64,000 nt of DNA, from positions 6,852-70,851 of the forward strand of contig CADBVV010000007.1 in the NCBI GenBank assembly GCA_902798205.1, in the 5' to 3' direction. This document shows positions 3,923-52,352 of this stretch, in pieces. Position 1 is the stretch's first letter. Each line of letters begins with the position of its first letter. This DNA is from an uncultured Pseudomonadota bacterium (lineage in GTDB: Bacteria; Pseudomonadota; Alphaproteobacteria; Rs-D84). The notes under the pieces are model-generated. The model was given only the letters and a program-made list of their open reading frames with translations. It ran no database searches and was not told the DNA's origin. Position numbers and translations under genes: made by a program.

Positions 3923-4438
3923 ATGGAAAACGAAAATAAAAAACAGGTAGAAATCGAAACAGTATCTGTAGACGAAGCACCAGAAATATCATCGGATAAA
4001 CAAACCGAAATTATCGAACAATTAAATAACAAGATTGCCGAATTAAACGACAAATATTTGCGTGTTGCGGCCGAATTAGAAAACACACGTCGTCGTGCAT
4101 CATTGGATATTGAATCTGTATCCCGTAATCGTGCAATGAGTGTGGCTGAAAAAATATTACCAGTTATGGATGCAATCAATGCCGCATTAACACACAACCC
4201 AGATGATGAAGGAATAAAAACAATGCAACGTGCAATGGAAAATGCATTTGCACAAATTGGAATTGTAAAAATAGAATCTGTTGGTGAAATGTTAAACCCA
4301 CAATTTCATAACGCAATTCAAATGGTTGATAAACCAGACGAAAAAACACCAACAAATACAATCATAAGCGAATTACAACCGGGATATATGTTCGGCGACA
4401 CAGTTCTGCGTACCGCAATGGTTGTTGTATCAAAATAA
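3923..4438 (+). CDS. grpE: Nucleotide exchange factor GrpE
   Basis: LRVAAELENTRRR, FHNAI, QPGYMFGDTVLRTAMVVV. Confidence 0.95.
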   Translation: MENENKKQVEIETVSVDEAPEISSDKQTEIIEQLNNKIAELNDKYLRVAAELENTRRRASLDIESVSRNRAMSVAEKILPVMDAINAALTHNPDDEGIKTMQRAMENAFAQIGIVKIESVGEMLNPQFHNAIQMVDKPDEKTPTNTIISELQPGYMFGDTVLRTAMVVVSK

Positions 4439-4963: not shown

Positions 4964-6046
4964 TTAATTTATCGCCGCGTCAACCATTGGTCTGGTTTTG
5001 ACAGTATCCAATGGATGTTTTTGATATGCGACAGACGAAAAATCAATATTATTCAAATCGAATTTTCGAATTATTGGGTTATACATTGTCGTATAATACA
5101 ATTTGTTGTTTGTCATATCTGTCACAGATGTCCATTGGGTCGCAGTTGGTATATTTGGAATCTTTGTTTTATCTGCAAACTGCACACCAATTGGTATAGT
5201 CATCGCTTCCAATATTGTAAAAGCTTGATTTACTGCCTGGGCCGCATTTTCCAATATTGGTGCAGATGTTTGATAAAATGCAACACGAACAAATCTGGAC
5301 GGTGGTGTAAAATCACCTGGCAACCCCAACAGGTTAGATCCGTGTTCTATGGGTTCCAATGTGATATCACCAAATTTGTGTGATTCTGTTGTTCCTGGGC
5401 GCAAGTTTATATAATTATTCAAATTTGTAATATGCCATGGATAACCCGGCGCATTGGTAAGAACACCCAATTTATTTTCATAAACCATTGGCAAACCATC
5501 AACATATTCAATAACAATTTGACGACCATATTTATCTGCAACACGCCAATGCAGATTTTCTGCACGTGCATCTGTGGCGACAACATTGACGGTGCTTAAT
5601 GCTGCAATTACATCTTCGACAGTTTCAAAATTACCCAACACCCATGCAACAAATTCTGTGTCAGAAATTGTCATATCTTTTTCAGATGCATCATATTTTG
5701 GATAAGATCCATATTTTGGGAAATAGAATAACCCTGCAGACAGCCCTGCTTCGTTTAAACCTTCAATTACATAATCTTCAGAAGCCAAACCAACATAGCC
5801 GTAAAATGCGGTATATTTCATACCGTTCCTTGTTCCGTCTGGCAACACAGATTGTTTTTCATATCCCTGGGGAACAATTAAATAATCACTTGGGCTTTCG
5901 CCATTTGACCATTCAACTGTGCGCGCAACAATGTTTGCACCATCGGCAGCGGTTAACGAAATTCCTGTACAGGAATCGGCACGGTTTACAATGCCAACAA
6001 TCGCCAGCATCATAATAAATAAAGAGTTTAATTTTTTCGTTTTCAT
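4964..6046 (-). CDS. Choloylglycine hydrolase / penicillin V acylase family Ntn hydrolase with signal peptide
   Basis: Signal peptide ending ADS, then CTGISL (N-terminal Cys nucleophile); ARTVEW, GLNEAGL, GVLTNAP, PGDFTPPSRFVR. Confidence 0.92.
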   Translation of the reverse strand: MKTKKLNSLFIMMLAIVGIVNRADSCTGISLTAADGANIVARTVEWSNGESPSDYLIVPQGYEKQSVLPDGTRNGMKYTAFYGYVGLASEDYVIEGLNEAGLSAGLFYFPKYGSYPKYDASEKDMTISDTEFVAWVLGNFETVEDVIAALSTVNVVATDARAENLHWRVADKYGRQIVIEYVDGLPMVYENKLGVLTNAPGYPWHITNLNNYINLRPGTTESHKFGDITLEPIEHGSNLLGLPGDFTPPSRFVRVAFYQTSAPILENAAQAVNQAFTILEAMTIPIGVQFADKTKIPNIPTATQWTSVTDMTNNKLYYTTMYNPIIRKFDLNNIDFSSVAYQKHPLDTVKTRPMVDAAIN

Positions 6047-6635: not shown

Positions 6636-9600
6636 CTATATACCTAATCTGTGATGAATTTTGAACATCAATATTGATTCATTGCCGAACATATCTGTAT
6701 TACCAGGATTTACACGATATATAAATCCAATACCAGCATCAGTAAATTCACCCAATGGCTGTTTGTATGAACCGGAAAATCTTAATTCACGTTTTTGTGC
6801 CACCAAATCAATATATTCTGTGTGTGGGTTATTCACTGCAACTTCATATTTTCCATTATTTTCTACAACAGATAAATCTGCATAATCATAACCCATTTTA
6901 CCATCAACCACAGCCAAAGGCATCGCGGCAGTAAAACTGAACCCATAAACATCGGCACCAATTGCAAACGCATTTGATTTAATATCAGACATTTCAGAAA
7001 TTATACCATTTCCAATATTTGCACGGGTATTTGCGAAAGTTGCACGTGCTGACAATTTTGCCTTGTCAAAAGGTTTATAATCTGCAACCACGTCAACATA
7101 TTGTGTCTTTGCACCATTCAAAGACAACAGACCATCACTTATCGAACCCAACACAGTGTTTGTTTCATTCATATTTCCCAAAGATACATTTAAATTAAAT
7201 TTATCTTTGTTATATGCAACATCTATAGCCCCACCATTTGCAAACCCAAGATGTCCTGGTTCAAATTGAGACGTTACAACAGGATCATTTTCCAACAAAT
7301 TTTCATCTGTTATTGTTCCAGAAAACGCATGCGCACCAAACGCGAAATCACCAGATTTATATTTTGCCCCACTGGACACACCATTTGAAACCAAAGACAA
7401 CAATCCATTTGCACGACCATCAAATCTGGATTCGCCATCAGTCAAATGATGTTGATATTCGGCATTCAAATCATAACGTTCACTGTTAAATGATATTTTC
7501 AAATTATCCAAACCGTTCATATTATCATGATATGCACGTGGGGACATAGCCATATCAAATGTCATATTACCAATTTTATTAGAACGCTTATTTGTAGAAT
7601 CAACCGCAAATTCACCCAAAACATCGCCCATATAAAGTCCATGTTTATAATCATTATTCAAAGACAATTCCATATTCCAAACACGCGGCAAAGATATTGA
7701 ACCATCCGCACTTTCAATAACATCAAAGAAAGACGTTCTTATTATACCATTTCCATTTAACACCGTGGAAGCACGCTGATTTGTTGTAGACGATGTTGCA
7801 ACCGTTCCCCAAAAAGCTGTTTTACCATCTGATGAAACGATTTTTTTGTTGTTTTTATCTGCCACAGAATAAAAATAAATATTTGTCCCTGGCCTTGTTG
7901 CGCGTTCCAAATTTATCATACCATAACCAAATGCCATCTTGAAATTTTGCAAATATTGATCGTCAGAAGTTTCAAGATTACTTGGCAAACTATATTTTGC
8001 TTGCAAGAAAGAAGTTATATTATCATAACCGGCCTCTTTCAAAGCAGCCGCATTTAAATATGGACCGTCTGCAGATAAAGCCAATAACAAGAATATCTGA
8101 TCAGGTGTCATATAATTAAATGCACTTTTAACAAGCGCAACAGAACCAGCCATTGCCGCAGTTGCTTCCATATCTGTTGTTCCAGGTGCTGCAAAACACC
8201 ATGGGTTCATTGCACCACCATTACCCGTTCCCGTCAACCCACACATACGTGAAGTATATGTTGTACTGGAATCATTTGTATCTGTCCATGTCGCCAATTC
8301 TAATTTTCCAGCCCCAGAAGTATTATATTCATCAATGGTTACACCTGCAGTCCCTGTTGTACTGTTTGGTTTAACAGCTACAACTGTGGCAAAAAAGTTT
8401 TGTAAATTATCATAAACAACTGGTGCAAAATTTTCAAAAGTTGCGACTTCTGGATTAACCTTGTAAGCAGACAAGTTTATTACATTACGCCCTGCAGAAT
8501 TTATCAACAATGCATTACCATAAACCTGTTGCAAATTCCCAGACCCCACATTAACAAAAACATCAGCAGCATCTTGCGCGGGGGTATTCACATCGCCATC
8601 ATCTGCGGTATTTAAATTGTAATAATTATTTATCATATTTCCGAACATGGTTCTTCTTTGTGCTGCTTCTGTATAGTTATTAACAAAAAAACTGGCATCT
8701 GAAACATCTGAATAATTTAAAGAAGAAGATCCTGATGGCAACGATAAATTTGCAACAACACTTGTGATATATTCGCCATTTGAATTTTTCAACTTAAGAG
8801 AATCTTTTATCGCAGCATAATTTTTATAATCAGCAACGACCCACGAAGAACTTGATGTATCCCAAGCTTGACCAGCACCAGTTCTGTAAACAGTCAATTG
8901 ACCATTCGGAATAAATCCATAAAAATCACCAGAGGTACGTCCACCATAATTCCAACCTGCAATTATTTTTGCAAGTTTTGTATCTTCTTCTGTTGCTTCA
9001 TCACTAAACACAGCAGTTCCAATACCAGTCAAATCAAACGCAGTATTTTCAACACCTGGTTCACTCTTTAACCCGGTTATATTAAAATATTTATGAGAAC
9101 TTGTCACAGATGCATTAACAAGACTTTGACATTCTGGTGAAAAAACACCATCAACAGCCACGCACTTCGCTACAATTTCACTTTTATAAGATTCATCAAA
9201 CCATTGCATTATACCATCAATCGCGCTACCTGTGGCATTAACACCAGAACCCGTCACCATCGTAACATTTACAGGCCTGCCACCTTCTGGTGTATCACCA
9301 ACAAAAGGATATTTTGACAAATCTAAAATTTCTTTTGTGGTATCATTTCTTACAGTAGCCATACCCAAATACCCACGAACAAAAGAATTATATGCACGTG
9401 CCACCATCAAATAGTTGAAACTATTCCGTGCTGTAATGTCTGACATATAAACGAAATCACTGTTTGGATCAGTACTTTCCCACACGGTAAAATCTGTCGG
9501 GCAAGAAGTTCCAGAACACGCCGGACCATATGGAAGATTTTGTGTAAACAATGGTGTAAAAGATGTGGTACCACCACCACCGCCACCGCCACCGCCGTGC

Positions 9601-10067
9601 GATCCACCAGACGAACCAGAATCATTATTATTCTTTGCCTTGAAAGCGTCGGTCAATAATGCGACCCCACCAATCACCGCGGCCACACCAACCGCAGACA
9701 ATAACAAAACATGCGAAGAAGATAATCCACTGAAAAATCCGTATTCTTCGCCACGCGTTGCAACACGACTTTTTTGTCTGTAGTTTTTAATTTGTCGTTC
9801 ACAATTTGAAGCGTCCGCACCATACATCTGCAAGACCTGTATCGCGCGTTTATCATTGTTCATAACCGCAGTACAAACCAAAGATAATCCAGTTGAATCA
9901 GTATAATTTATATCGGCACCACGATTAATTAAAACCTGGACAGTTTGTGTATCGCCACGACGTGCAGCCGCCAATAATTGTGATGCGTTTTGAAAATCAG
10001 GCGATGCCCCGAACGACATGCACGGGAATAAAAATGCTACAAAGCCCAATAATCTAATAAATTTCAT
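6636..10067 (-). CDS. Secreted protein with ankyrin repeats, degenerate S8 subtilase-like domain and C-terminal beta-barrel-like domain
   Basis: Signal peptide; ankyrin (LLAAARRGDTQTVQVLINRGADINYTDSTG); poly-Gly linker; S8-like WCFAAPG, AGSVALVKSAF, FGYGMINL; C-terminal alternating beta-strands. Confidence 0.8.
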   Translation of the reverse strand: MKFIRLLGFVAFLFPCMSFGASPDFQNASQLLAAARRGDTQTVQVLINRGADINYTDSTGLSLVCTAVMNNDKRAIQVLQMYGADASNCERQIKNYRQKSRVATRGEEYGFFSGLSSSHVLLLSAVGVAAVIGGVALLTDAFKAKNNNDSGSSGGSHGGGGGGGGGTTSFTPLFTQNLPYGPACSGTSCPTDFTVWESTDPNSDFVYMSDITARNSFNYLMVARAYNSFVRGYLGMATVRNDTTKEILDLSKYPFVGDTPEGGRPVNVTMVTGSGVNATGSAIDGIMQWFDESYKSEIVAKCVAVDGVFSPECQSLVNASVTSSHKYFNITGLKSEPGVENTAFDLTGIGTAVFSDEATEEDTKLAKIIAGWNYGGRTSGDFYGFIPNGQLTVYRTGAGQAWDTSSSSWVVADYKNYAAIKDSLKLKNSNGEYITSVVANLSLPSGSSSLNYSDVSDASFFVNNYTEAAQRRTMFGNMINNYYNLNTADDGDVNTPAQDAADVFVNVGSGNLQQVYGNALLINSAGRNVINLSAYKVNPEVATFENFAPVVYDNLQNFFATVVAVKPNSTTGTAGVTIDEYNTSGAGKLELATWTDTNDSSTTYTSRMCGLTGTGNGGAMNPWCFAAPGTTDMEATAAMAGSVALVKSAFNYMTPDQIFLLLALSADGPYLNAAALKEAGYDNITSFLQAKYSLPSNLETSDDQYLQNFKMAFGYGMINLERATRPGTNIYFYSVADKNNKKIVSSDGKTAFWGTVATSSTTNQRASTVLNGNGIIRTSFFDVIESADGSISLPRVWNMELSLNNDYKHGLYMGDVLGEFAVDSTNKRSNKIGNMTFDMAMSPRAYHDNMNGLDNLKISFNSERYDLNAEYQHHLTDGESRFDGRANGLLSLVSNGVSSGAKYKSGDFAFGAHAFSGTITDENLLENDPVVTSQFEPGHLGFANGGAIDVAYNKDKFNLNVSLGNMNETNTVLGSISDGLLSLNGAKTQYVDVVADYKPFDKAKLSARATFANTRANIGNGIISEMSDIKSNAFAIGADVYGFSFTAAMPLAVVDGKMGYDYADLSVVENNGKYEVAVNNPHTEYIDLVAQKRELRFSGSYKQPLGEFTDAGIGFIYRVNPGNTDMFGNESILMFKIHHRLGI

Positions 10068-20228: not shown

Positions 20229-20305
20229 CGGGGTGTAGCTCAGTCTGGTAGAGTACTTGGTTTGGGACCAAGGTGTCGAAGGTTCGAATCCTTTCGCCCC
20301 GACCA
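20229..20305 (+). tRNA. tRNA-Pro (anticodon TGG)
   Basis: cggggtgtagctcagtctggtagagtacttggtttgggaccaagg...ggttcgaatcctttcgccccgacca; cloverleaf with encoded CCA. Confidence 0.97.
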
Positions 20306-20311
20306 GATTAA

Positions 20312-20350
20312 ACAAAAAAAGACCGCTTTATGCGGTGTTTTTTTGTTTAA
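20312..20350 (+). terminator. Terminator after tRNA-Pro (centre of an extended inverted repeat)
   Basis: aaacaaaaaaagaccgc-tttat-gcggtgtttttttgttt. Confidence 0.8.
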
Positions 20351-20360
20351 CCTTTGGTTC

Positions 20361-20579
20361 GTCGGGGCGAAAGGATGCGCCAGAGCGCAGCGCATGGCGT
20401 ATACGAGAATACACAATTAAGAAAATTTTAAAAAATCGAAGTTCACGAGACTATGAGTTTGTGTTCACAAATGAAATGCAGTGAACACATTACGAATGAC
20501 CCACAGCCACATATTTATATATGAGCGAGGGATTTTTTAATTTTATTTATTGTGTATCGAGGAGGAAACGCCCCGACCA
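20361..20579. repeat. tRNA-linked palindromic element, copy 1
   Basis: 16-nt reverse complement of the tRNA-Pro 3' end (20361-20376); 29-nt core identical to 52226-52254; AT-rich inverted arms; 11-nt direct copy of the tRNA 3' end (20569-20579). Confidence 0.85.
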
Positions 20580-20699
20580 CGAAATTCAAAACCGCCATAT
20601 TTGGTGGTTCTGTTTTATGCTATTTTCTTGACCATTGGTATATTTTATAGTAAAAATAGGTTTAAAATCGCTTTGCAAATATACCAAGCGGAGATATAT

Positions 20700-21638
20700 A
20701 TGAAAAAAATTTTTATAGATGGCAGCAAAGGAACAACAGGTCTTCAAATATTTGAAAGACTTTCCCAAAGACGCGATATTGAACTTATCACCCTGCCCGA
20801 AGAACTTAGAAAATCACCAGATGCCAGAAAAGAAGCATTGAATCAATCGGATATTGCTTTTTTGTGTTTGCCTGATGCAGAAAGTATCGAAGCCGTTAAA
20901 ATGGTTGAAAATAAAAACACTGTTATCATAGATGCATCAACCGCACACAGAACAAATGACAATTGGACATATGGTTTTGCAGAATTACCAAATCAAGAAT
21001 ACAAAATCAGAAATTCTAAAAGAATTGCAAACCCTGGTTGCCATGCCAGTGGTTTTATCGCCCTGGTCGCACCATTGGTATATCAAAGATTGATATCTGC
21101 GGATACAATATTATCCGCATATTCTTTGACCGGATATTCTGGTGGTGGCAAGAAAATGATTGCAGAATATGAATCTGATGACAGACCAGACCTGTTTGAA
21201 GCACCAAGAATTTATGGACTTTCACAAAATCACAAACATTTGCCAGAAATGACAAAAATTTGCGGTTTGGAAAACGCCCCACTGTTTTCACCAATTGTTT
21301 CTTCTTTTTACAAAGGAATGACAACAGTTGTGTTTTTACCAGCAAAAGCATTGCGTGGTAATATCGAAGATATCAAACAAACATATAAATCATTATATGT
21401 AAATGGTTTGGTTCATTTTGCTGAAAACAATGATGAAAATGGTTTTATGTCTGCATCTGCATTCGCGGGTCGCGATGACATGGAAGTATCCGTATTTGGA
21501 AATAAAGACAGAATCACCCTGGTTTCAAGATTCGACAACCTTGGCAAAGGGGCATCTGGTTCTGCAATTGAAAATATGAACATTGTTATGGGATTAAAAA
21601 AATATACCGGATTGGTAACATCTAAAGGAGAAAGATAA
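20700..21638 (+). CDS. argC: N-acetyl-gamma-glutamyl-phosphate reductase
   Basis: IFIDGSKGTTG, DASTAHR, ANPGCHASG, DNLGKGASG; start set at ATG 20700 after a GGAG RBS. Confidence 0.95.
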   Translation: MKKIFIDGSKGTTGLQIFERLSQRRDIELITLPEELRKSPDARKEALNQSDIAFLCLPDAESIEAVKMVENKNTVIIDASTAHRTNDNWTYGFAELPNQEYKIRNSKRIANPGCHASGFIALVAPLVYQRLISADTILSAYSLTGYSGGGKKMIAEYESDDRPDLFEAPRIYGLSQNHKHLPEMTKICGLENAPLFSPIVSSFYKGMTTVVFLPAKALRGNIEDIKQTYKSLYVNGLVHFAENNDENGFMSASAFAGRDDMEVSVFGNKDRITLVSRFDNLGKGASGSAIENMNIVMGLKKYTGLVTSKGER

Positions 21639-22876: not shown

Positions 22877-24904
22877 ATGAATAAAGAAAAATCAGAAATT
22901 GTAAAACAGGTATCGCCATATCTCGAACGCTATAAAGATAAAATAGTGGTTGTGAAATATGGCGGTAATGCCATGATTAATGAAGAATTAAAACAACAGG
23001 TTATGGAAGACATTTCATTATTGTGGTCCATGGGGGTCAAAGTTGTTTTGGTTCATGGTGGTGGTCCTGAAATAAATTCTTTGATGGAAAGATTGGGACA
23101 TGTTCCGCAATTCATTGATGGGTTAAGAGTCACTGATAAAGAAACAGTTGATATTGTTCAAATGGTTTTGGCCGGCAAAGTCAACAAAGGTCTGGTAAAT
23201 CTGTTGGGCAAAAACGGCAGCAAAGCAATCGGTTTGTCTGGTATGGATGGCGGAATGCTGATGTGCAAACAAAAAGATGAAAGATTGGGTTTTGTTGGCG
23301 ATGTAGAAAAAGTCAACCCACAACCTATTCTTGATTTGATTGAAAAAGGTTATATACCTGTTATTTCAACTGTCGGGGCAGATGCAAAAGGCAATGTTTA
23401 CAACATTAATGGCGATACCGCTACTTCCTATATTGCGGGTGCATTAAATGCAGAAAGATTAATCATGATGACCGACATTGCTGGAATATTACGCGACAAA
23501 GATGATCCATCTACACTTATTTCTGAAATCTCTGTTTCTGAATCTGCGAAATTAAAAACTGACGGAATAATTTCTGGTGGCATGATACCAAAGGTTGAAT
23601 GTGCGGTTAAAGCCGTTAATGCAGGCGTTAATAATGTCGCCATCATAGATGGACGTATTCCTCATTCAATTCTTAAAGAATTGGCATCAGATAAAGGAAC
23701 AGGAACAATAATTACCAAGGATAAAAAAATGAATATTCAAGAAATGGATAAAAAATATATTGCATCAACTTATAACAGATTTCCTGTGACTATTGTTTCA
23801 GGCAAAGGTTCAATTGCTGTTGATGTAAACGGTAAAAAATATATTGATATGGGTTCTGGAATCGGTGTGACCAGTTTTGGTTACTGCGATGAAATTTGGC
23901 AAAACGCAATAAGTGAACAAATTCATCTGGTGCAACATACTTCTAATTTATATTATACAGAACCATGTGCAAAATTGGCTGAAATTTTGGCAAAAAAGAC
24001 AGGTATGTCAAAAGTGTTCTTTTCTAATTCTGGGGCGGAAGCAAACGAATGTGCAATCAAAGCAGCCAGAAAATATGCATCTGAAACAAAAGGTAAAGAT
24101 TGCTATAATATCGTAACACTTTGGAACGGTTTCCATGGACGCACATTGACAACCCTGGCCGCGACAGGTCAAGAACATTATCATGAACTTTTCCAACCTT
24201 TGACCCAAGGGTTTAAACATATCCATGTTGGCGATATCAACGAATTAAAATCTGTTGATCCAAAAACAACAGCCGCGATTATGATTGAATGCATCCAAGG
24301 CGAAGGTGGTGTAAACGTTCTGCCAAAAGAATATGTAAAAGCAATCGAAAATTATTGCAAACAAAATAATATTTTGTTGATTGTCGATGAAGTGCAAACC
24401 GGTAACGGAAGAACAGGTGAATTTTATTCATATATGAATTACGGTATTAAACCAGATATTGTAAGTACAGCAAAAGGACTTGCCGGTGGATTGCCTATGG
24501 GTGCAACAATGCTGGGTGAAAAAGTGAAAGATGTTTTTGCTTTTGGTGATCATGGGTCAACTTTTGGTGGCAACCCTGTTGCAGCAGCAGCAGCCGTTTC
24601 AATTGTGAACAGAATTGATTCAAAATTACTGGGTGATGTAAAACAAAAAGGAAAGTTTATAAAAGATTTCTTTCAAAACAATCCTGATGTTGAACAAATA
24701 TCTGGTATGGGTTTAATGGTCGGTATCAAACCTGCAAATAAACCAGCCGCAGAAGTTGTAAAACAATGTATGGAAAAAGGTGTTCTTTGCCTTACTGCGA
24801 AAGACAAGGTAAGATTGTTACCTGCCCTGAATATCCCATTGGATACATTAAAAGAAGCATTAGAAATAATAAAATCTTCAATGGCAAAAACACAAACACG
24901 ATAA
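22877..24904 (+). CDS. argB: Fused acetylglutamate kinase (ArgB) and acetylornithine aminotransferase (ArgD)
   Basis: Residues 1-284: VVKYGGNAM, VHGGGP, NINGD, GGMIPK. From Met285 (23729): SNSGAEANE, FHGRT, DEVQTG, AKGLAGG, HGSTFGGNP. Confidence 0.93.
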   Translation: MNKEKSEIVKQVSPYLERYKDKIVVVKYGGNAMINEELKQQVMEDISLLWSMGVKVVLVHGGGPEINSLMERLGHVPQFIDGLRVTDKETVDIVQMVLAGKVNKGLVNLLGKNGSKAIGLSGMDGGMLMCKQKDERLGFVGDVEKVNPQPILDLIEKGYIPVISTVGADAKGNVYNINGDTATSYIAGALNAERLIMMTDIAGILRDKDDPSTLISEISVSESAKLKTDGIISGGMIPKVECAVKAVNAGVNNVAIIDGRIPHSILKELASDKGTGTIITKDKKMNIQEMDKKYIASTYNRFPVTIVSGKGSIAVDVNGKKYIDMGSGIGVTSFGYCDEIWQNAISEQIHLVQHTSNLYYTEPCAKLAEILAKKTGMSKVFFSNSGAEANECAIKAARKYASETKGKDCYNIVTLWNGFHGRTLTTLAATGQEHYHELFQPLTQGFKHIHVGDINELKSVDPKTTAAIMIECIQGEGGVNVLPKEYVKAIENYCKQNNILLIVDEVQTGNGRTGEFYSYMNYGIKPDIVSTAKGLAGGLPMGATMLGEKVKDVFAFGDHGSTFGGNPVAAAAAVSIVNRIDSKLLGDVKQKGKFIKDFFQNNPDVEQISGMGLMVGIKPANKPAAEVVKQCMEKGVLCLTAKDKVRLLPALNIPLDTLKEALEIIKSSMAKTQTR

Positions 24905-48028: not shown

Positions 48029-51000
48029 TTAGAAGTTACATCTTAATTTCAACATACCAGTTTGAGATGTGTAATCTTTACGAACATCAATATCGTAATT
48101 TAATGCTATATCCAAGTTACGATATTTCATACCCAAACCGATACCGAATTCACCACCAATACGACTTAAACGTTCACCATCCATTGTATAAGAATTAATA
48201 CCTGGCATTGTGACGGTTGCGATATTTTTATCAGACAACAAATCATATTTAAATCCGGCATTCAATTGTGGCATAAATGTTGTATATTTCCCTGCAACTA
48301 CATTAAACGCATATTTTGCACCCAATATACCTGTCAAGAAATTTGCATTATCCATATGTGTTTTTACACCAAATGAATTCGTATAATCATCGGCAGTAAC
48401 ATGGATATAACGCAATCCCAATTCTGGGGTTATACCTGTATTAAAGTTATAACCAGTCGCGACATTACCACCATATGATTTAACAGAATAATCTGCAAAT
48501 ATTGGTGTGTTGTCAATAACAGTTCCTTTTTCAGAATAATCCGATGAAGTATAATTCGCAATTGCATTCAAATACCATTGTGATGGTTTATATTGACCAT
48601 ACACAAATACAGTGTTTGAATTGATTGCTGTATCACGTGCGGATCCACTGATATCAGAATGTGCGAACGAATACCCTGCACCGATTGTCCAACGTTTGTT
48701 TATAGTTCCATCTAAACCAAGTGCGATTCCACGTGTATAACCGTTAAATGCATCTGCTTGTTTAGATCTGTTGTATAAACCTTGGGCCCAAACACCACCA
48801 GAAGTCAATTTTGCATCACCACCGTTACGACCCACAATTGGGGCAGCCATACGAGATGCCGCCAGGTTAACAATTGTGTTTTGAACAGATGTTGATACAG
48901 ATTGTGCAACAGATTCGGTTTCTGGGTGAATTGCCTTGGTTGCATATTCAACAGATGCGGTATCGCCTGAGGCCAATTTTTCTTGCAATTTCACAGACAA
49001 CTCTTTCATCTGTTTTGATGAAGAATTGGAAGCAGATTCTACAACCGCCGCAACTGCTGTCGCTGAATCTTTCGAGATTTCAGAACCAGCAACAATTTCG
49101 TCTGCTGTTTTGCTTGATGCGGTTACATCACCACCATCCCAAGACAAATTGTAAACAGAACTTACAACTTTATCAGTAAACGAAACACCTGTTTCACCAC
49201 TTGCAACGTTCCATGTCAAATCTTCGATATCAAAGTCTGCTTTTCCACCAAAGACATGATATGTACCGGTTTCGGTCATTGTTAACGCCAATTTACCATC
49301 ACCATCAAATTCTTGTGCATTGATTTGTGCATCTTCTGCACCCTTGGTCAATGTTGCAGTCATATTACCATTTAATATGATTGTATCTTGGGTAATAGAT
49401 GCGGTGCCAATATTCAATGTTGCGCCATTGGCAATCGTCAAATCACCATTACCAGTGATACCACCATTAATTGTTGTTGTTCCAGATGCAATCGTCAAAT
49501 CACCAACATTGTGGATATCATTAGCATTGTCGCCGGCCTTATTTCCAGTAAACTTGTTTATACCGGCCAAAGTCAAGACACCTTCGTTATAAATAGCGCC
49601 ACCATTTTCAGATGCAATATTAGACGTAAATGATGAATTGGTTAATTTGATATTACCAACCTTGCCATCTGCGGCATCGTTATATATTGCCCCACCATTG
49701 TATGCTTCATTTTTTGTAAATGTTGAATCAGAAATCGTTGCAAAACCTTCACCTTTCTTGTTATTCCAAACATTCGCATAAATAGCTCCACCAAACCCAC
49801 GTATATTTGCAAAGTTACTTGCAGAAACAGAATCAGATGTCGCGTCATAGATAACACCAGCTTTGTTACCAATAAATGTGCTGTTTGTAATATCAAGTTT
49901 TTCACCAACATTGTTTTGGGCGGTTGTACGCGTTGAAATTGCACCGCCTCCTAATGTTGTGTAATTGTTCTTGAATTCTGTTCCAGAAATTGTAACTAAC
50001 GATTCAGATCCCAAAGACAACGCACCAGCACCTTCCATTTGGTTTTGATTTGACACAGACATTGCAGCAAAAGCATCCGCATCATTGAATGTAGTATAAT
50101 TATTGATAAAGTGAGAATTTGTTATAGAAGATTCTGCAGATTTATCAAAAATACCAACTGCACCGTTTTCGTTTGCATGATTGTTTCTGAAAGTTGTTCC
50201 TGAAATTGTCAAAGTACTTGGCGCATTCACAACAGTTCTTATTGCTGCACCATAATCAGCAGTATTACCATCAAACAAAGAATCTGTCACTGTTAATTTT
50301 CCGGTTGAGAAAACAGCCCCCCCTGTTACAGTGGCGTTATTATCAACAAATTCACCATTGGCTATATTCATTATACCAGAATTATAAATCGCACCACCTC
50401 TGGTTGCCGTATTTTCAGTAAATGTATATGTACCATTGGTCAAATTCACTTCTGCAACCTTGCCAGCATCAGCAAAATTGTAAATCGCACCACCATTCAA
50501 TGTTGCGGTATTATTTTCAAATGTCGTTGTACCATTGATTGTTAAATATGCATTACCATCTGTATCAACAGCACGGTTCATAATTGCACCACCGTTCATC
50601 GAAGAAGTGTTTTCTGTAAATATATTTGTGCTGGTGCCATCTTCTTTGCCAATAACCATATCTGCATCGATTGGTGTATGAACGCCTTCAACCTCGTAAG
50701 ACTGGTTTGCAACCGCACCACCACCACGTTTGTGCAATTTAGCAGCAATATCTGTTCCTAATATTTTATTGCCTGTAAACGTATTGGTTGCGCCCAATAT
50801 GGACATATTTCCACCAGTGCCGAATACAGCACCACCACTGCTGGCACTGTAATCCGATGTATTATTGCTGAATGTTATATTATTTGCAATAAGGCGTGCG
50901 GCATTATCTCCTGCTGTTTGATCTTTGAAATATAAAGCCGCACCATGTGACGTAGAAGTATTATTATCAAACAATAATGATTCGCCACCTGCCAGTAAAG

Positions 51001-51955
51001 AACCACCTTTATTCATTGTGATGGCCCCATAATCTGATACAACGTTTTTGACAACTGTGCTTCCTGTGCCTTCTGGGTTCAACACCAATGTGGCACCTGG
51101 CTTTATATCTAATTTAGAACCATCAATATTAATTTCATCTGCGTTTAATGTTGTTACACCATCTGAATCAATATCTTCTGCATTTGTATAAAATCTATTT
51201 GCAGTATTCAACAATGCAGTATCCTGTTTAACAAATGTCAATTTTGAACCATTTGTCACTGAAATTTTATCAGCATTAATTGTCGAACCATCAACCACGG
51301 CATCAACATCATCAAGAGCAAGAACACCATCATTAGAAGCATCTGTATCTTTACGTGACATCACATAAACTGCACCAGCCGCACCGTTAACAGCCTCTGT
51401 CACCTTTGCTGTCAATGCATCACCTGTATACCCCAAATCAGAAAAAACTGTTGTCATAGCTGCAACTAAATTTTGATTGATAGTCTGATAGTCCGAAAAA
51501 TCATCTTTTTCACCCCAACCTATATTTGCGGCTTTTGCAATATCCATATCGGCATTAACGTCTTCATCTGGAGCTTGCCAATTAAATGCGAATTTATCAC
51601 CTTCGTCCAAACTATCTAATGTTAAAGTGATTGGACCAAAATAAGCATCACTGTTGGACAACGCAAATGATTGGCCAACCATATTATAATTTGGAAAGAC
51701 ATTATGATATTTACTAGAGACCGTACTGTCGGCCAAACGACGCCCCCCAAATGCGGCCTCGCTAGCCGCAACATGTTGACCAGCGAAAGAAACATCACCA
51801 AAAACCCATGCATTACCATCTGTATTTGGTGCAGCGGCCATTGCAGGTGTTGCAACCATTAAACCAAATGCAATTGCATTGCATAAAATACCATGACGCA
51901 GAACAGCGCGATACGCCGCAGTTAATTCTTTTAATGTGGTTTTGGATTGTTTCAT
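48029..51955 (-). CDS. Autotransporter adhesin with Pmp-like GGA(I/V)/FxxN beta-helix repeats
   Basis: Long signal peptide; about ten GGA(I/V) motifs paired with FxxN; C-terminal autotransporter barrel (GGVWAQG...) ending in Phe. Confidence 0.9.
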   Translation of the reverse strand: MKQSKTTLKELTAAYRAVLRHGILCNAIAFGLMVATPAMAAAPNTDGNAWVFGDVSFAGQHVAASEAAFGGRRLADSTVSSKYHNVFPNYNMVGQSFALSNSDAYFGPITLTLDSLDEGDKFAFNWQAPDEDVNADMDIAKAANIGWGEKDDFSDYQTINQNLVAAMTTVFSDLGYTGDALTAKVTEAVNGAAGAVYVMSRKDTDASNDGVLALDDVDAVVDGSTINADKISVTNGSKLTFVKQDTALLNTANRFYTNAEDIDSDGVTTLNADEINIDGSKLDIKPGATLVLNPEGTGSTVVKNVVSDYGAITMNKGGSLLAGGESLLFDNNTSTSHGAALYFKDQTAGDNAARLIANNITFSNNTSDYSASSGGAVFGTGGNMSILGATNTFTGNKILGTDIAAKLHKRGGGAVANQSYEVEGVHTPIDADMVIGKEDGTSTNIFTENTSSMNGGAIMNRAVDTDGNAYLTINGTTTFENNTATLNGGAIYNFADAGKVAEVNLTNGTYTFTENTATRGGAIYNSGIMNIANGEFVDNNATVTGGAVFSTGKLTVTDSLFDGNTADYGAAIRTVVNAPSTLTISGTTFRNNHANENGAVGIFDKSAESSITNSHFINNYTTFNDADAFAAMSVSNQNQMEGAGALSLGSESLVTISGTEFKNNYTTLGGGAISTRTTAQNNVGEKLDITNSTFIGNKAGVIYDATSDSVSASNFANIRGFGGAIYANVWNNKKGEGFATISDSTFTKNEAYNGGAIYNDAADGKVGNIKLTNSSFTSNIASENGGAIYNEGVLTLAGINKFTGNKAGDNANDIHNVGDLTIASGTTTINGGITGNGDLTIANGATLNIGTASITQDTIILNGNMTATLTKGAEDAQINAQEFDGDGKLALTMTETGTYHVFGGKADFDIEDLTWNVASGETGVSFTDKVVSSVYNLSWDGGDVTASSKTADEIVAGSEISKDSATAVAAVVESASNSSSKQMKELSVKLQEKLASGDTASVEYATKAIHPETESVAQSVSTSVQNTIVNLAASRMAAPIVGRNGGDAKLTSGGVWAQGLYNRSKQADAFNGYTRGIALGLDGTINKRWTIGAGYSFAHSDISGSARDTAINSNTVFVYGQYKPSQWYLNAIANYTSSDYSEKGTVIDNTPIFADYSVKSYGGNVATGYNFNTGITPELGLRYIHVTADDYTNSFGVKTHMDNANFLTGILGAKYAFNVVAGKYTTFMPQLNAGFKYDLLSDKNIATVTMPGINSYTMDGERLSRIGGEFGIGLGMKYRNLDIALNYDIDVRKDYTSQTGMLKLRCNF

Positions 51956-52093
51956 AAGGCTCTCCCTTTCTTGTTTAATTATAGCCTAGAACACAAATTT
52001 TGATCTTGCAAGTTTTTTATACACGAATGAAATCATAATATGCAAAATATTTATTTGAAAATACAAATAATATGTATATAATTACTTTCGCAT

Positions 52094-52167
52094 TGGGGCA
52101 TAGTTTAATGGTAGAACATCGGACTCTGACTCCGCTAGTGTTGGTTCGAATCCAGCTGCCCCAACCA
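52094..52167 (+). tRNA. tRNA-Gln (anticodon CTG)
   Basis: tggggcatagtttaatggtagaacatcggactctgactccg...ggttcgaatccagctgccccaacca; U1-A72 pair typical of Gln. Confidence 0.93.
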
Positions 52168-52211
52168 GAATAAAAATCAAAACACCTTTTGGTGTTTTTA
52201 TTTTTATCCAA

Positions 52212-52347
52212 GGGGCAGCTGGATACGCCAGAGCGCAGCGCATGGCGTATACGAAGATACACAATTAGAAAAATCTTAAAAAATTGAAATTCATGAAATT
52301 TTTTTGATTTTTATTATTATGTATTGAGGACGCAGCTGCCCCAACCA
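52212..52347. repeat. tRNA-linked palindromic element, copy 2
   Basis: 13-nt reverse complement of the tRNA-Gln 3' end (52212-52224); 29-nt core identical to 20378-20406; AT-rich arms; 15-nt direct copy of the tRNA 3' end (52333-52347). Confidence 0.85.
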
Positions 52348-52352
52348 AGAAT

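Follow-up and report, generated by a model that had tools for sequence, protein, structure and literature searches.

Both tRNA genes in the window, a stretch of 64,000 nucleotides (nt) from an uncultured alphaproteobacterium (assembly GCA_902798205.1, contig CADBVV010000007.1, positions 6,852 to 70,851), are directly followed on their 3' side by a small non-coding insertion, as located with ARAGORN and Rfam. We have named it E1, the tRNA-end hairpin insertion element. E1 has a size of ~190 bp, and reaches 274 bp behind tRNA-Pro owing to a nested module. It carries an inverted and a direct copy of the tRNA end, and in every copy that we have found these two arms are specific to the tRNA gene next to which the element stands. 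In our estimate there is roughly an even chance that E1 is a DNA-level hairpin-site element, which would be exchanged at or next to the CCA end by a recombinase encoded elsewhere.

Anatomy, copies and insertion sites of E1

The first-pass annotation of the window, made from the letters alone, had described after tRNA-Pro a series of tRNA-derived arms, terminator, core, AT-rich arms, tail and direct copy. All of these parts are indeed in place, and the pattern is far beyond chance. The target gene, tRNA-Pro(TGG), lies at 20229-20305 on the + strand, like all the parts listed below (ARAGORN; Rfam, 65 bits), and the sequence A that is copied by the arms is formed by its last 18 nt, ATCCTTTCGCCCCGACCA (20288-20305, tRNA positions 59-76). 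The insertion occupies the 274 bp from 20306 to 20579, and its limits are the CCA end and a direct repeat of 11 bp. It opens with a spacer and a bidirectional intrinsic terminator of its own (20306-20354, stem 20322-20336, from the terminator scan), which is not found in the empty site described below. The inverted arm A' (20355-20376) was delimited by comparison with the tRNA-Pro 3' end: the exact 16-mer GTCGGGGCGAAAGGAT at 20361-20376 is the reverse complement of the tRNA bases ATCCTTTCGCCCCGAC, positions 59-74 (16/16), and upstream of it the CCA end has its complement in interrupted form, as TGGT with a 4-nt insertion. Next stands P2, a GC-rich core hairpin (20377-20399; GCGCCA GA GCG CAG CGC A TGGCG) that is the same in both window copies, with the conserved junction TATACGAGA (20400-20408) directly 3' of it. 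The AT-rich hairpin P3 (20409-20557), recognised from folds and compensatory changes, has its 5' arm at 20409-20429, its 3' arm at 20539-20557 and the nested module in its apical loop. The conserved tail CGAGGA (20558-20563) and the linker GGAAA follow, and the insertion closes on its right with the direct arm A'' (CGCCCCGACCA, 20569-20579), which repeats the tRNA end. No open reading frame (ORF) is found within E1.

Two points of the early description have to be revised. The "variable loop" of ~90 nt is right insofar as an insert does stand in the P3 loop. Actually it is a separate nested 84-nt module with two hairpins, E3 (20449-20532, inserted after ..CACGA; nhmmer E = 1.6e-16), which is also present in other contexts. 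In addition, GAAATTCAAA (20581-20590) had been taken as part of the element, but it is the native tRNA-Pro flank, as it stands directly 3' of the tRNA at the empty site of L037 (L-numbers denote the related loci or contigs compared). The native flank CGAAATTCAAAA and the native terminator (20580-20618, stem 20590-20609) are placed outside E1 by the empty site in L036/L037 and by the terminator scan. A meaningful complement or mirror relation of the linker to the T stem was also considered and has been rejected, as AGGAAW belongs to the tail that is conserved among Pro and Ser copies.

The second copy stands at 52168-52347 on the + strand behind tRNA-Gln(CTG) (52094-52167 by ARAGORN and Rfam, with A at 52150-52167). 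It has no E3 module and shows the same order of parts with Gln-specific arms: spacer and terminator (52168-52211, stem 52179-52198), A' GGGGCAGCTGGAT (52212-52224), P2 (52225-52248), the two P3 arms (52257-52275 and 52306-52324), the tail (52325-52330) and A'' AGCTGCCCCAACCA (52334-52347). As the annotation had stated, the same core thus follows tRNA-Gln. The 29 nt at 20378-20406 are identical at 52226-52254, and these are the sole two matches in the window at ≤3 mismatches, where shuffled sequences are expected to give 0. The Gln copy is identical in three other assemblies.

We have scanned a 20-nt core against one genome per species (185,579 species), which gave 15 true loci and 10 chance matches in GC-rich genomes. 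The bin titles of all 15 true loci read Candidatus Enterousia, Alphaproteobacteria or proteobacterium, with rumen, colon, cecum or faeces as the source of several, and a scan of Joint Genome Institute (JGI) metagenomes added just two contigs, both at tRNA-Glu. The distinct E1 copies number 17, from Enterousia-like gut and rumen Alphaproteobacteria, nearly all in bins with the above titles. Their targets are tRNA-Pro, Gln, Ser(GGA), Ser(CGA) and Glu, the last with two arm types; that is, the E1 body recurs in 13 species at 5 tRNAs. On the other hand, the annotation had recognised no described family, and our searches agree with this. No BLAST match to E1 was obtained in 50,697 phage and 72,556 plasmid records, and viral contigs scanned with the core and the tail motif gave nothing but chance matches in unrelated coding DNA. 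Rfam 15, run on the window and the related loci at gathering and relaxed thresholds, holds no E1 family that could explain the arms; only the two window tRNAs pass, and the rest is hairpin-like noise. We have found no description of the E1 family in Rfam or the searchable literature.

The arms of other copies had been predicted to match the local upstream tRNA, and this is the case in 17 of 17 copies. The local tRNA is the best match of both arms, with exact runs of 6-17 nt, whereas unrelated tRNAs give mostly runs of 3-6 nt, with a chance maximum of 11. Between L007 and L008/L015, the tRNA-Ser(GGA) genes differ by G/A, and the arms follow this difference as well. In old copies, the arms decay.

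The empty site was found in a related species, which we have reached via argC homologues. In L036 and L037 (argC 86% identical), the tRNA-Pro end ...CGCCCCGACCA passes straight into CGAAATTCAAACC and a terminator, and the same sequence follows A'' in the window. The expectation that relatives would hold empty-site alleles is thereby confirmed. In L056 (argC 89% identical), the site is occupied by a body of a second family, E2, behind a related left terminator and closing with an 18-nt copy of the tRNA end; in L025, E1 is followed by a second element. The breakpoints at the tRNA-Pro site fall exactly at the CCA/direct repeat. According to these alignments, gain or loss of the E1 unit, whichever the direction, takes place precisely at the direct repeats, and the related species with the empty site can dispense with it. 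Tandem arrays at one tRNA, whose units each end in a tRNA-end copy, are present in L020 (tRNA-Gln-E1-E2-E1), L008/L015 (tRNA-Ser-E2-E1), L025 and L027 (two E1 copies). Overall, the proposal of a non-autonomous insertion element is borne out by the empty site in a related species, the tandem arrays, the many copies and the lack of an ORF.

Both window copies recur with 100% identity in independent assemblies of their species, so the E1 sequence is no assembly artefact. These assemblies tend to break inside E1, as expected of a repeat. Two contigs of one metagenome-assembled genome end or start inside E1 (L009 6140-6176 and L002 1-32), where the 5' arm at the start of L002 mismatches tRNA-Ser. 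This would be due either to chimerism at the contig end or to a further copy whose arm does not match. A different arrangement is seen in L038 (9630-10001), when compared with the window at 20229-20700 and 48029-52350: tRNA-Gln and its autotransporter neighbour stand directly upstream of argC via a composite element. This arrangement suggests that E1/E2-like elements may mediate rearrangement between the tRNA-Gln and tRNA-Pro loci.

Maintained hairpins and separate histories of arms and body

We have aligned the 17 copies (alignment A4) and derived a consensus structure, which consists of P2 and P3. Of the P2/P3 cells 96.3% are paired, and compensatory, two-sided changes occur in 8 of the 24 pairs, a level reached by 0 of 500 shuffles. 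When the partners are slid by 1-3 columns as a control, 26-46% of cells pair. The P2 outer stem covaries between GCCA/TGGC, GGTCG/CGACC and GGTCA/TGACC (L027, L028), and its inner stem changes from GCG/CGC to GTGCC/GGCAC while the unpaired GA and (G)CA stay unchanged. It follows from the compensatory changes that the hairpins as such are maintained. In addition, there are 12 G.U cells and 3 A.C cells in P2/P3, and this excess of G.U points to the + strand, i.e. the tRNA-sense strand, as the folding strand.

The inverted copy had been proposed to pair alternatively with the tRNA or with the downstream direct copy, and both pairings are recovered by folding. Pairing of A' with A'' closes a three-way structure (RNA fold of -67.8 kcal/mol, z -4.8, for Pro; -49.2 kcal/mol, z -6.4, for Gln), and in most copies this stem, P1, extends over 8-10 bp with -15 to -24 kcal/mol. 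The tRNA end, the terminator and A' make up a fold-back of ~40 bp (-37.1 kcal/mol as DNA, z -12.6), and A' favours the tRNA over A'' when the tRNA end is included in the fold.

The fine structure of A' is similar across the family. Its reverse complement starts at ATCC, tRNA positions 59-62, or, in the type-1 copies at tRNA-Glu, at the other ATCC, positions 47-50. From there the match is near perfect to ~position 69-72, then an insertion, deletion or mismatches occur over ~70-76 (discriminator and CCA), and the similarity to the target returns in the spacer past the CCA. In numbers, ~15 irregular events of the inverted repeat fall into ~70-76 (7 positions) and ~3 into 59-69 (11 positions), and the CCA complement in A' is disrupted in every copy. 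Hence the long hairpin is consistently imperfect exactly where the tRNA meets the insertion. As A' continues into the non-tRNA spacer, the template of the inverted copy was DNA, or at least not the mature tRNA. We have also observed that inverted T-arm copies repeatedly show the same 4-nt flip, CTCG to CGAG (L028 at ~1113 and ~271 on the minus strand, L022, and L058 at ~2055-2075), and that a motif CGAG(A/G)A recurs at module junctions, namely the TATACGAGA junction, the ATCGAGGA tail and the E3 end CGAGGGA.

The arms and the body have different histories. The body of the window Pro copy, from core to tail, is 84-89% identical to the Gln bodies, 83% to the Ser bodies (71% in the case of the divergent L014 copy) and 67% to the Pro copy of L025. 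The latter body, in turn, is 82-83% identical to two tRNA-Glu type-2 bodies, and the third type-2 body (L028a) is 87-91% identical to type-1 bodies. The window Pro copy and the L025 Pro copy nevertheless have the same A', the same 4-nt insertion and the same terminator family. That is, body identity cuts across tRNA identity, as separate histories of arms and body would produce, and it agrees with the early claim that the arms, which throughout the family match the adjacent tRNA, did not come along with the core. The stem-loop AAAAAAGACCGCTTTATGCGGT, which is the terminator in the Pro copy of the window, recurs 3' of tRNA-Glu in L028, and it is to this terminator that the one before the E2-type body in L056 is related. 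E1 is therefore modular, with reassortment of terminator, arms, P2 and P3 and with the arm segment placed between conserved element parts. On the other hand, both E1 copies in L020 share the same A' mismatch, which indicates that arms can be copied along with the element. In the Glu lineage, A'' decays and the CCA is lost while the body is intact.

Possible routes of movement

Taken in order, the inserted unit consists of its own terminator, A' (tRNA positions 59 to ~72), the constrained hairpins P2 and P3, the tail CGAGGA and A''. With its own bidirectional terminator, the tRNA transcript would still end properly. If E1 is exchanged as a folded site, the partner of A' in a single DNA strand would be either A'' or, across the terminator, the tRNA end, and the pairing would recreate the target as a duplex that is irregular and mostly unpaired where the CCA junction lies. 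This folded site would be used by the recombinase encoded elsewhere, with strand exchange at or next to the CCA, and because the CCA is universal, the element could land beside any tRNA. The clade does have tyrosine recombinases, none of which is linked to E1. Intrastrand template switching would then adjust the long hairpin, imperfect at first, to the sequence of the tRNA copy, which is essential, and A'' would be adjusted to A'. Such switching, or else gene conversion across the hairpin once the element is in place, would be the likeliest route by which the arms would come to match a new tRNA; homogenisation of arms and flipping of spacers by template switching have been documented (PMC8604942, PMC8794818). 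The spacer after the CCA is alike in the element and in the native flanks (CCA-GAAWTWAAA), which would suit a second binding arm. The annotation had instead suggested insertion through fold-back or template-switch synthesis at the tRNA 3' end. This mechanism is conceivable but unproven, and three facts agree at least as well with a recombination site folded as a hairpin: the own terminator is not in the empty site, A' lies between conserved element parts, and the irregularities concentrate at the CCA-proximal part of the inverted repeat.

Folded sites of this type are known from CTXphi attP(+), recombined by XerCD, and from integron attC (PMC3442271, PMC4792948). As in E1, an inverted repeat of one strand folds there so that it mimics the target duplex, the order after integration is direct, inverted, direct, a variable loop tolerates insertions, and copies accumulate in tandem at one site. 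The duplex of these systems is imperfect in its centre, the point of exchange, and the imperfect zone of E1 at the CCA is placed where such an unpaired central region would be expected. E1 differs from them in that alignment A4 contains no dif-like XerC/XerD site and no R''/L''-L'/R' boxes (RYYYAAC / GTTRRRY). Moreover, the paired arms of E1 are the tRNA 3' end and change with the target, and E1, with only ~190 bp, has no phage or cassette gene and no recombinase candidate linked to it.

Several observations weigh against an exchanged folded site. We have run Pfam on 50 of the 55 window ORFs and on 90 ORFs flanking related copies, and no recombinase, transposase or reverse transcriptase adjoins a copy, none is found in 58 kb of window sequence, and none recurs in the flanks of the 15 loci; the co-occurring transposase, reverse transcriptase or integrase for which the annotation had advised to look is thus missing there. 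No free, circular, phage-borne or plasmid-borne form of E1 is present in the phage, plasmid and viral collections. Same-species assemblies show no presence/absence polymorphism, hence no sign of current activity, and the empty tRNA-Pro site could in principle be a secondary deletion between direct repeats. The length of the direct repeat varies, being 11-16 bp in intact copies, shorter in decayed ones and perhaps ~49 bp in L009/L002, as expected of neither a target duplication of set length nor a constant identity block. Finally, A' extends beyond A'' toward the T loop, for which a free-form hairpin has no need, and the oldest lineage, tRNA-Glu type 1, has lost the pairing of A' with A''.

An alternative without a dedicated enzyme, close to the fold-back idea of the annotation, seems unlikely to us. 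Here the triplication would be a by-product of replication template switching (snap-back) at hairpins, the arms would be synthesised from the target each time, and the conserved body would spread among tRNA loci by copy-choice or gene conversion. The order A - palindrome - A' - palindrome - A'' is indeed the geometry of inverted triplications or tandem inversion duplications, with palindromes at both junctions (PMC4689423), and homogenisation of inverted-repeat arms, flips and spacer inversion are documented (PMC8604942, PMC8794818). The run of A' into the spacer past the CCA, which speaks for copying from DNA, the recurrent CTCG to CGAG flip and the discordant body and arm histories would all be natural products of such switching, as would variable direct repeats, which reach ~55 bp including the terminator in L058 and perhaps similar extents in L009/L002. 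However, the junction palindromes, terminator and body, are not in the empty site, so they were imported and did not pre-exist, unlike those of tandem inversion duplications. The same covarying body with conserved unpaired motifs in 13 species and at 5 tRNAs argues for selection on a functional structure, the mismatches are clustered at the CCA end and not random, and the A' mismatch common to both L020 copies means that arms can travel with the element. GC skew gave no usable signal on the replication strand.

A bolder reading, also unlikely in our judgement, is a base-pair-programmed mobile DNA moved by a putative recombinase, in which A', an exchangeable part inside the conserved hairpin scaffold, would together with A'' specify the tRNA end and would be rewritten from the new target by hairpin-templated synthesis. 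If true, E1 would be a nucleic-acid-guided, self-retargeting insertion system for tRNA genes, which would be categorically new. Arms that guide insertion by pairing would offer a compact, programmable choice of integration site, and arms that are rewritten by template switching would give an unusually clear natural case of hairpin-templated sequence conversion.

It is rather improbable that the E1 copies are inert remnants of larger integrative elements using the tRNA 3' end, in the manner of cis-mobilisable elements (CIMEs) and tandem accretion, with the repeats as attL/attR and the body as a former attP arm. Like such elements, E1 is non-autonomous, inserts at the tRNA 3' end with a direct repeat, leaves the tRNA intact and forms tandem arrays whose units each end in a tRNA-end copy, and this combination is classical for integrases targeting tRNA or ssrA genes and for CIMEs (PMC5704250, PMC7563491, PMC3146451). 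Flanking tRNA-end repeats and tandem accretion are thus both found, but a cognate integrase is not. P4-type integrases do occur among the tyrosine recombinases of the clade, one of them, in L058, adjacent to a tRNA-Asp 3' fragment with a related small element behind it; small ORFs lie in some array units (L028, L036), and the arms of old copies have decayed, as remnants would. Against this, one scaffold carries matching arms for at least 5 tRNAs, whereas an attP is fixed for one target, and the additional inverted arm has no role in a classical attP. No gene remnants are found inside E1, the compensatory changes speak for maintained hairpins under structural constraint, and no integrase is adjacent to any E1.

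Two recombinase genes were looked at more closely. A tyrosine recombinase of ~385 amino acids (aa) in L035 (4191-5342) was considered as a candidate E1 enzyme, but its contexts are variable, it adjoins no element and no link to E1 is found. Its homologues (P0121-P0240, with longer forms of ~500 aa) come from gut Alphaproteobacteria only (132 proteins at E < 1e-10), with 60-70% identity between species and genomic neighbours that vary by genome. In L058 (498-2190), the P4-type integrase gene adjoins the tRNA-Asp 3' fragment, which starts in the anticodon loop and represents a classical island end; the element after the fragment is an E2, whose direct repeat of ~55 bp comprises tRNA end, spacer and terminator.

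Small mobile elements of other kinds share general features with E1. Miniature inverted-repeat transposable elements (MITEs), repetitive extragenic palindromic sequences and bacterial interspersed mosaic elements (REP/BIME), and the palindrome-associated transposable elements (PATEs) derived from the insertion sequences (IS) IS200/IS605 are likewise small, non-coding, multi-copy, made mostly of hairpins, confined to one lineage and mobilised in trans, with nested members. The outer inverted repeat of E1, however, is a target copy, A' and A'' changing with the tRNA, and of the arms just the inner, AT-rich ones belong to the element itself. Its flanking repeat has a variable length (11-16 bp or more), where the above families have a constant duplication or lack one, it inserts at the end of a structural RNA gene instead of at a short motif, and no transposase partner is found. 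Fixed terminal inverted repeats and a duplication of fixed length are both missing, so E1 is no classical MITE, and a PATE of the IS200/IS605 type, which has no flanking duplication and inserts 3' of a fixed 4-5 nt motif, disagrees with the flanking direct repeat of E1. No related autonomous IS with the same ends is present in the window, the 15 flanking loci or the phage, plasmid and viral collections.

A function as RNA, either as an acceptor-stem mimic ending in NCCA (a decoy or substrate for tRNA-end enzymes or toxins) or as a read-through or processing switch with A' as a competitor for the tRNA 3' end, is very unlikely: although the A':A'' helix of 8-10 bp reproduces the acceptor-stem strand exactly and leaves (N)CCA overhanging at the 3' side, the + strand tolerates G.U pairs, and the ever-disrupted CCA complement leaves the tRNA end free, the body stands between two bidirectional terminators, its own and the native one, the Pro copy has no promoter match between its own terminator and A'', the Gln copy has one weak 9-of-12 match (52293-52320) within shuffle expectation, A'' decays and the CCA is lost in the Glu lineage with an intact body, and E1 is dispensable in a related species. 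The downstream genes are also unrelated between copies, the Gln copy facing a convergent methyltransferase gene. Taken together, terminators on both sides, the missing promoter, the differing downstream genes and the decayed arms speak against the earlier idea of an RNA switch coupling tRNA processing to read-through into argCJBD.

Other RNA or RNA-guided readings have been tried and rejected. The best relevant Rfam score is that of permuted (two-piece) transfer-messenger RNA (tmRNA_permuted, RF04321), at 15.6 bits against a gathering threshold of 47 and covering the stretch from T arm to A' only, and ARAGORN finds no tmRNA; a tmRNA-like reading of the neighbour elements that contain GGTTCGAC has no ARAGORN or Rfam support either. 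A T-box or other tRNA-sensing leader has no Rfam match and is inconsistent with the downstream genes, including the convergent one at the Gln copy. An IS110-family bridge RNA does not apply, as no ORF is adjacent and the arms complement each other instead of matching two adjacent target halves. For a retroelement primer-binding site as the origin of A', the boundary at tRNA position 59 is the same as in retroviral primer-binding sites; the always interrupted CCA complement, the run into the spacer and the lack of a reverse transcriptase in the window contradict it, and the tRNA-Glu type-1 copies of A', which span the whole T arm, also count against an origin by reverse transcription.

Small non-autonomous elements at tRNA gene ends are of a known and common kind. 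What is unusual in E1 is that the arms mirror the target and are uncoupled from the body, for which we have found no description. In practice, E1-type elements break metagenome assemblies at tRNA genes and mark rearrangement hot spots in reduced gut alphaproteobacterial genomes, and their added terminators and pseudo-tRNA ends can confuse annotation.

Related modules and the genes of the window

The nested module E3, of ~70-85 nt, contains two hairpins that covary; its 5' end reads CTATGAGT/CAAYRAGT and its 3' end CGAGGGA. Besides the window copy at 20449-20532, it is found at L003 19-89, L016 2774-2852, L020 1102-1170, L036 6530-6598 and L038 9787-9860. In two independent E1 copies it is nested in the P3 loop after ..CGA, the L003 case lying inside an E1 at tRNA-Glu, and in E2 elements it stands inside a T-loop-like GGTTCGA|..|AATCC. 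With its two hairpins, insertion after ..CGA and no clear duplication, E3 fits a PATE better than E1 does, and by its sequence it resembles a putative hairpin element of the IS200/IS605 type inserting 3' of TCGA.

The second family, E2, occurs at the 3' ends of tRNA-Ser, tRNA-Gln (CTG and TTG) and tRNA-Pro and at the tRNA-Asp fragment. Its layout is a terminator, a short hairpin, GGTTCG(A/G), a structured insert, and (A)ATCC with an 18-19-nt tRNA-end copy, like a T arm split at its loop. We have located E2 at L004 3441-3620, L008 ~3940-4132 (minus strand), L016 2700-2870, L020, L040 6332-6490, L056 1072-1245 and L058 1995-2190; the L004 element has the same P2 hairpin as E1, and no E2 matches Rfam or a tmRNA. 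A composite "E4" (L025, L036, L038, L058) was considered as an insertion type of its own and given up, deletion derivatives of E2-A-E1 tandems, as present in L008, L015 and L016, being the simpler explanation.

Just beyond the arrays at several tRNAs stands a further inverted-repeat unit, ..GAGTTCGTAAGTT..~35 nt..TTTACGAACTT.., often followed by a terminator AAAGGTTAGAAATCTAACCTTT. It is found at L006 4590-4641, L017 2988-3039, L021 260-311, L025 786-837 and 1285-1336, L035 14300-14351 and L037 144-195, and is not in the window. At tRNA-Ala (L017 7560-7847, minus strand, and L035 2727-2900), there are two or three tandem copies of the last 30 nt, i.e. the T arm and acceptor strand, each after a ~100-bp unit ending ..CAACCATCACCGTC. 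At tRNA-Leu(TAG), L006 has a 97-bp insert and a 21-nt end copy, which are missing in L017 and L003.

The window itself is ordinary chromosomal DNA with 37% G+C, from a gut alphaproteobacterium near Candidatus Enterousia. Its housekeeping genes include rpsF/rplI, argC, argJ, an argB-argD fusion, rho, ftsH, groEL, enolase, ssb and carD. The fusion is a single ORF of 675 aa (22877-24904), in which ArgB (acetylglutamate kinase, AA_kinase) is joined to ArgD (acetylornithine aminotransferase, Aminotran_3), whereas argB and argD are two separate genes in L038 and L040. An autotransporter of 1308 aa with Chlamydia PMP-type repeats (48029-51955) adjoins tRNA-Gln, and a protein of 1143 aa (6636-10067) has an N-terminal ankyrin repeat region as its sole recognisable feature. 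A choloylglycine (bile-salt) hydrolase is encoded at 4964-6046, consistent with a gut habitat.

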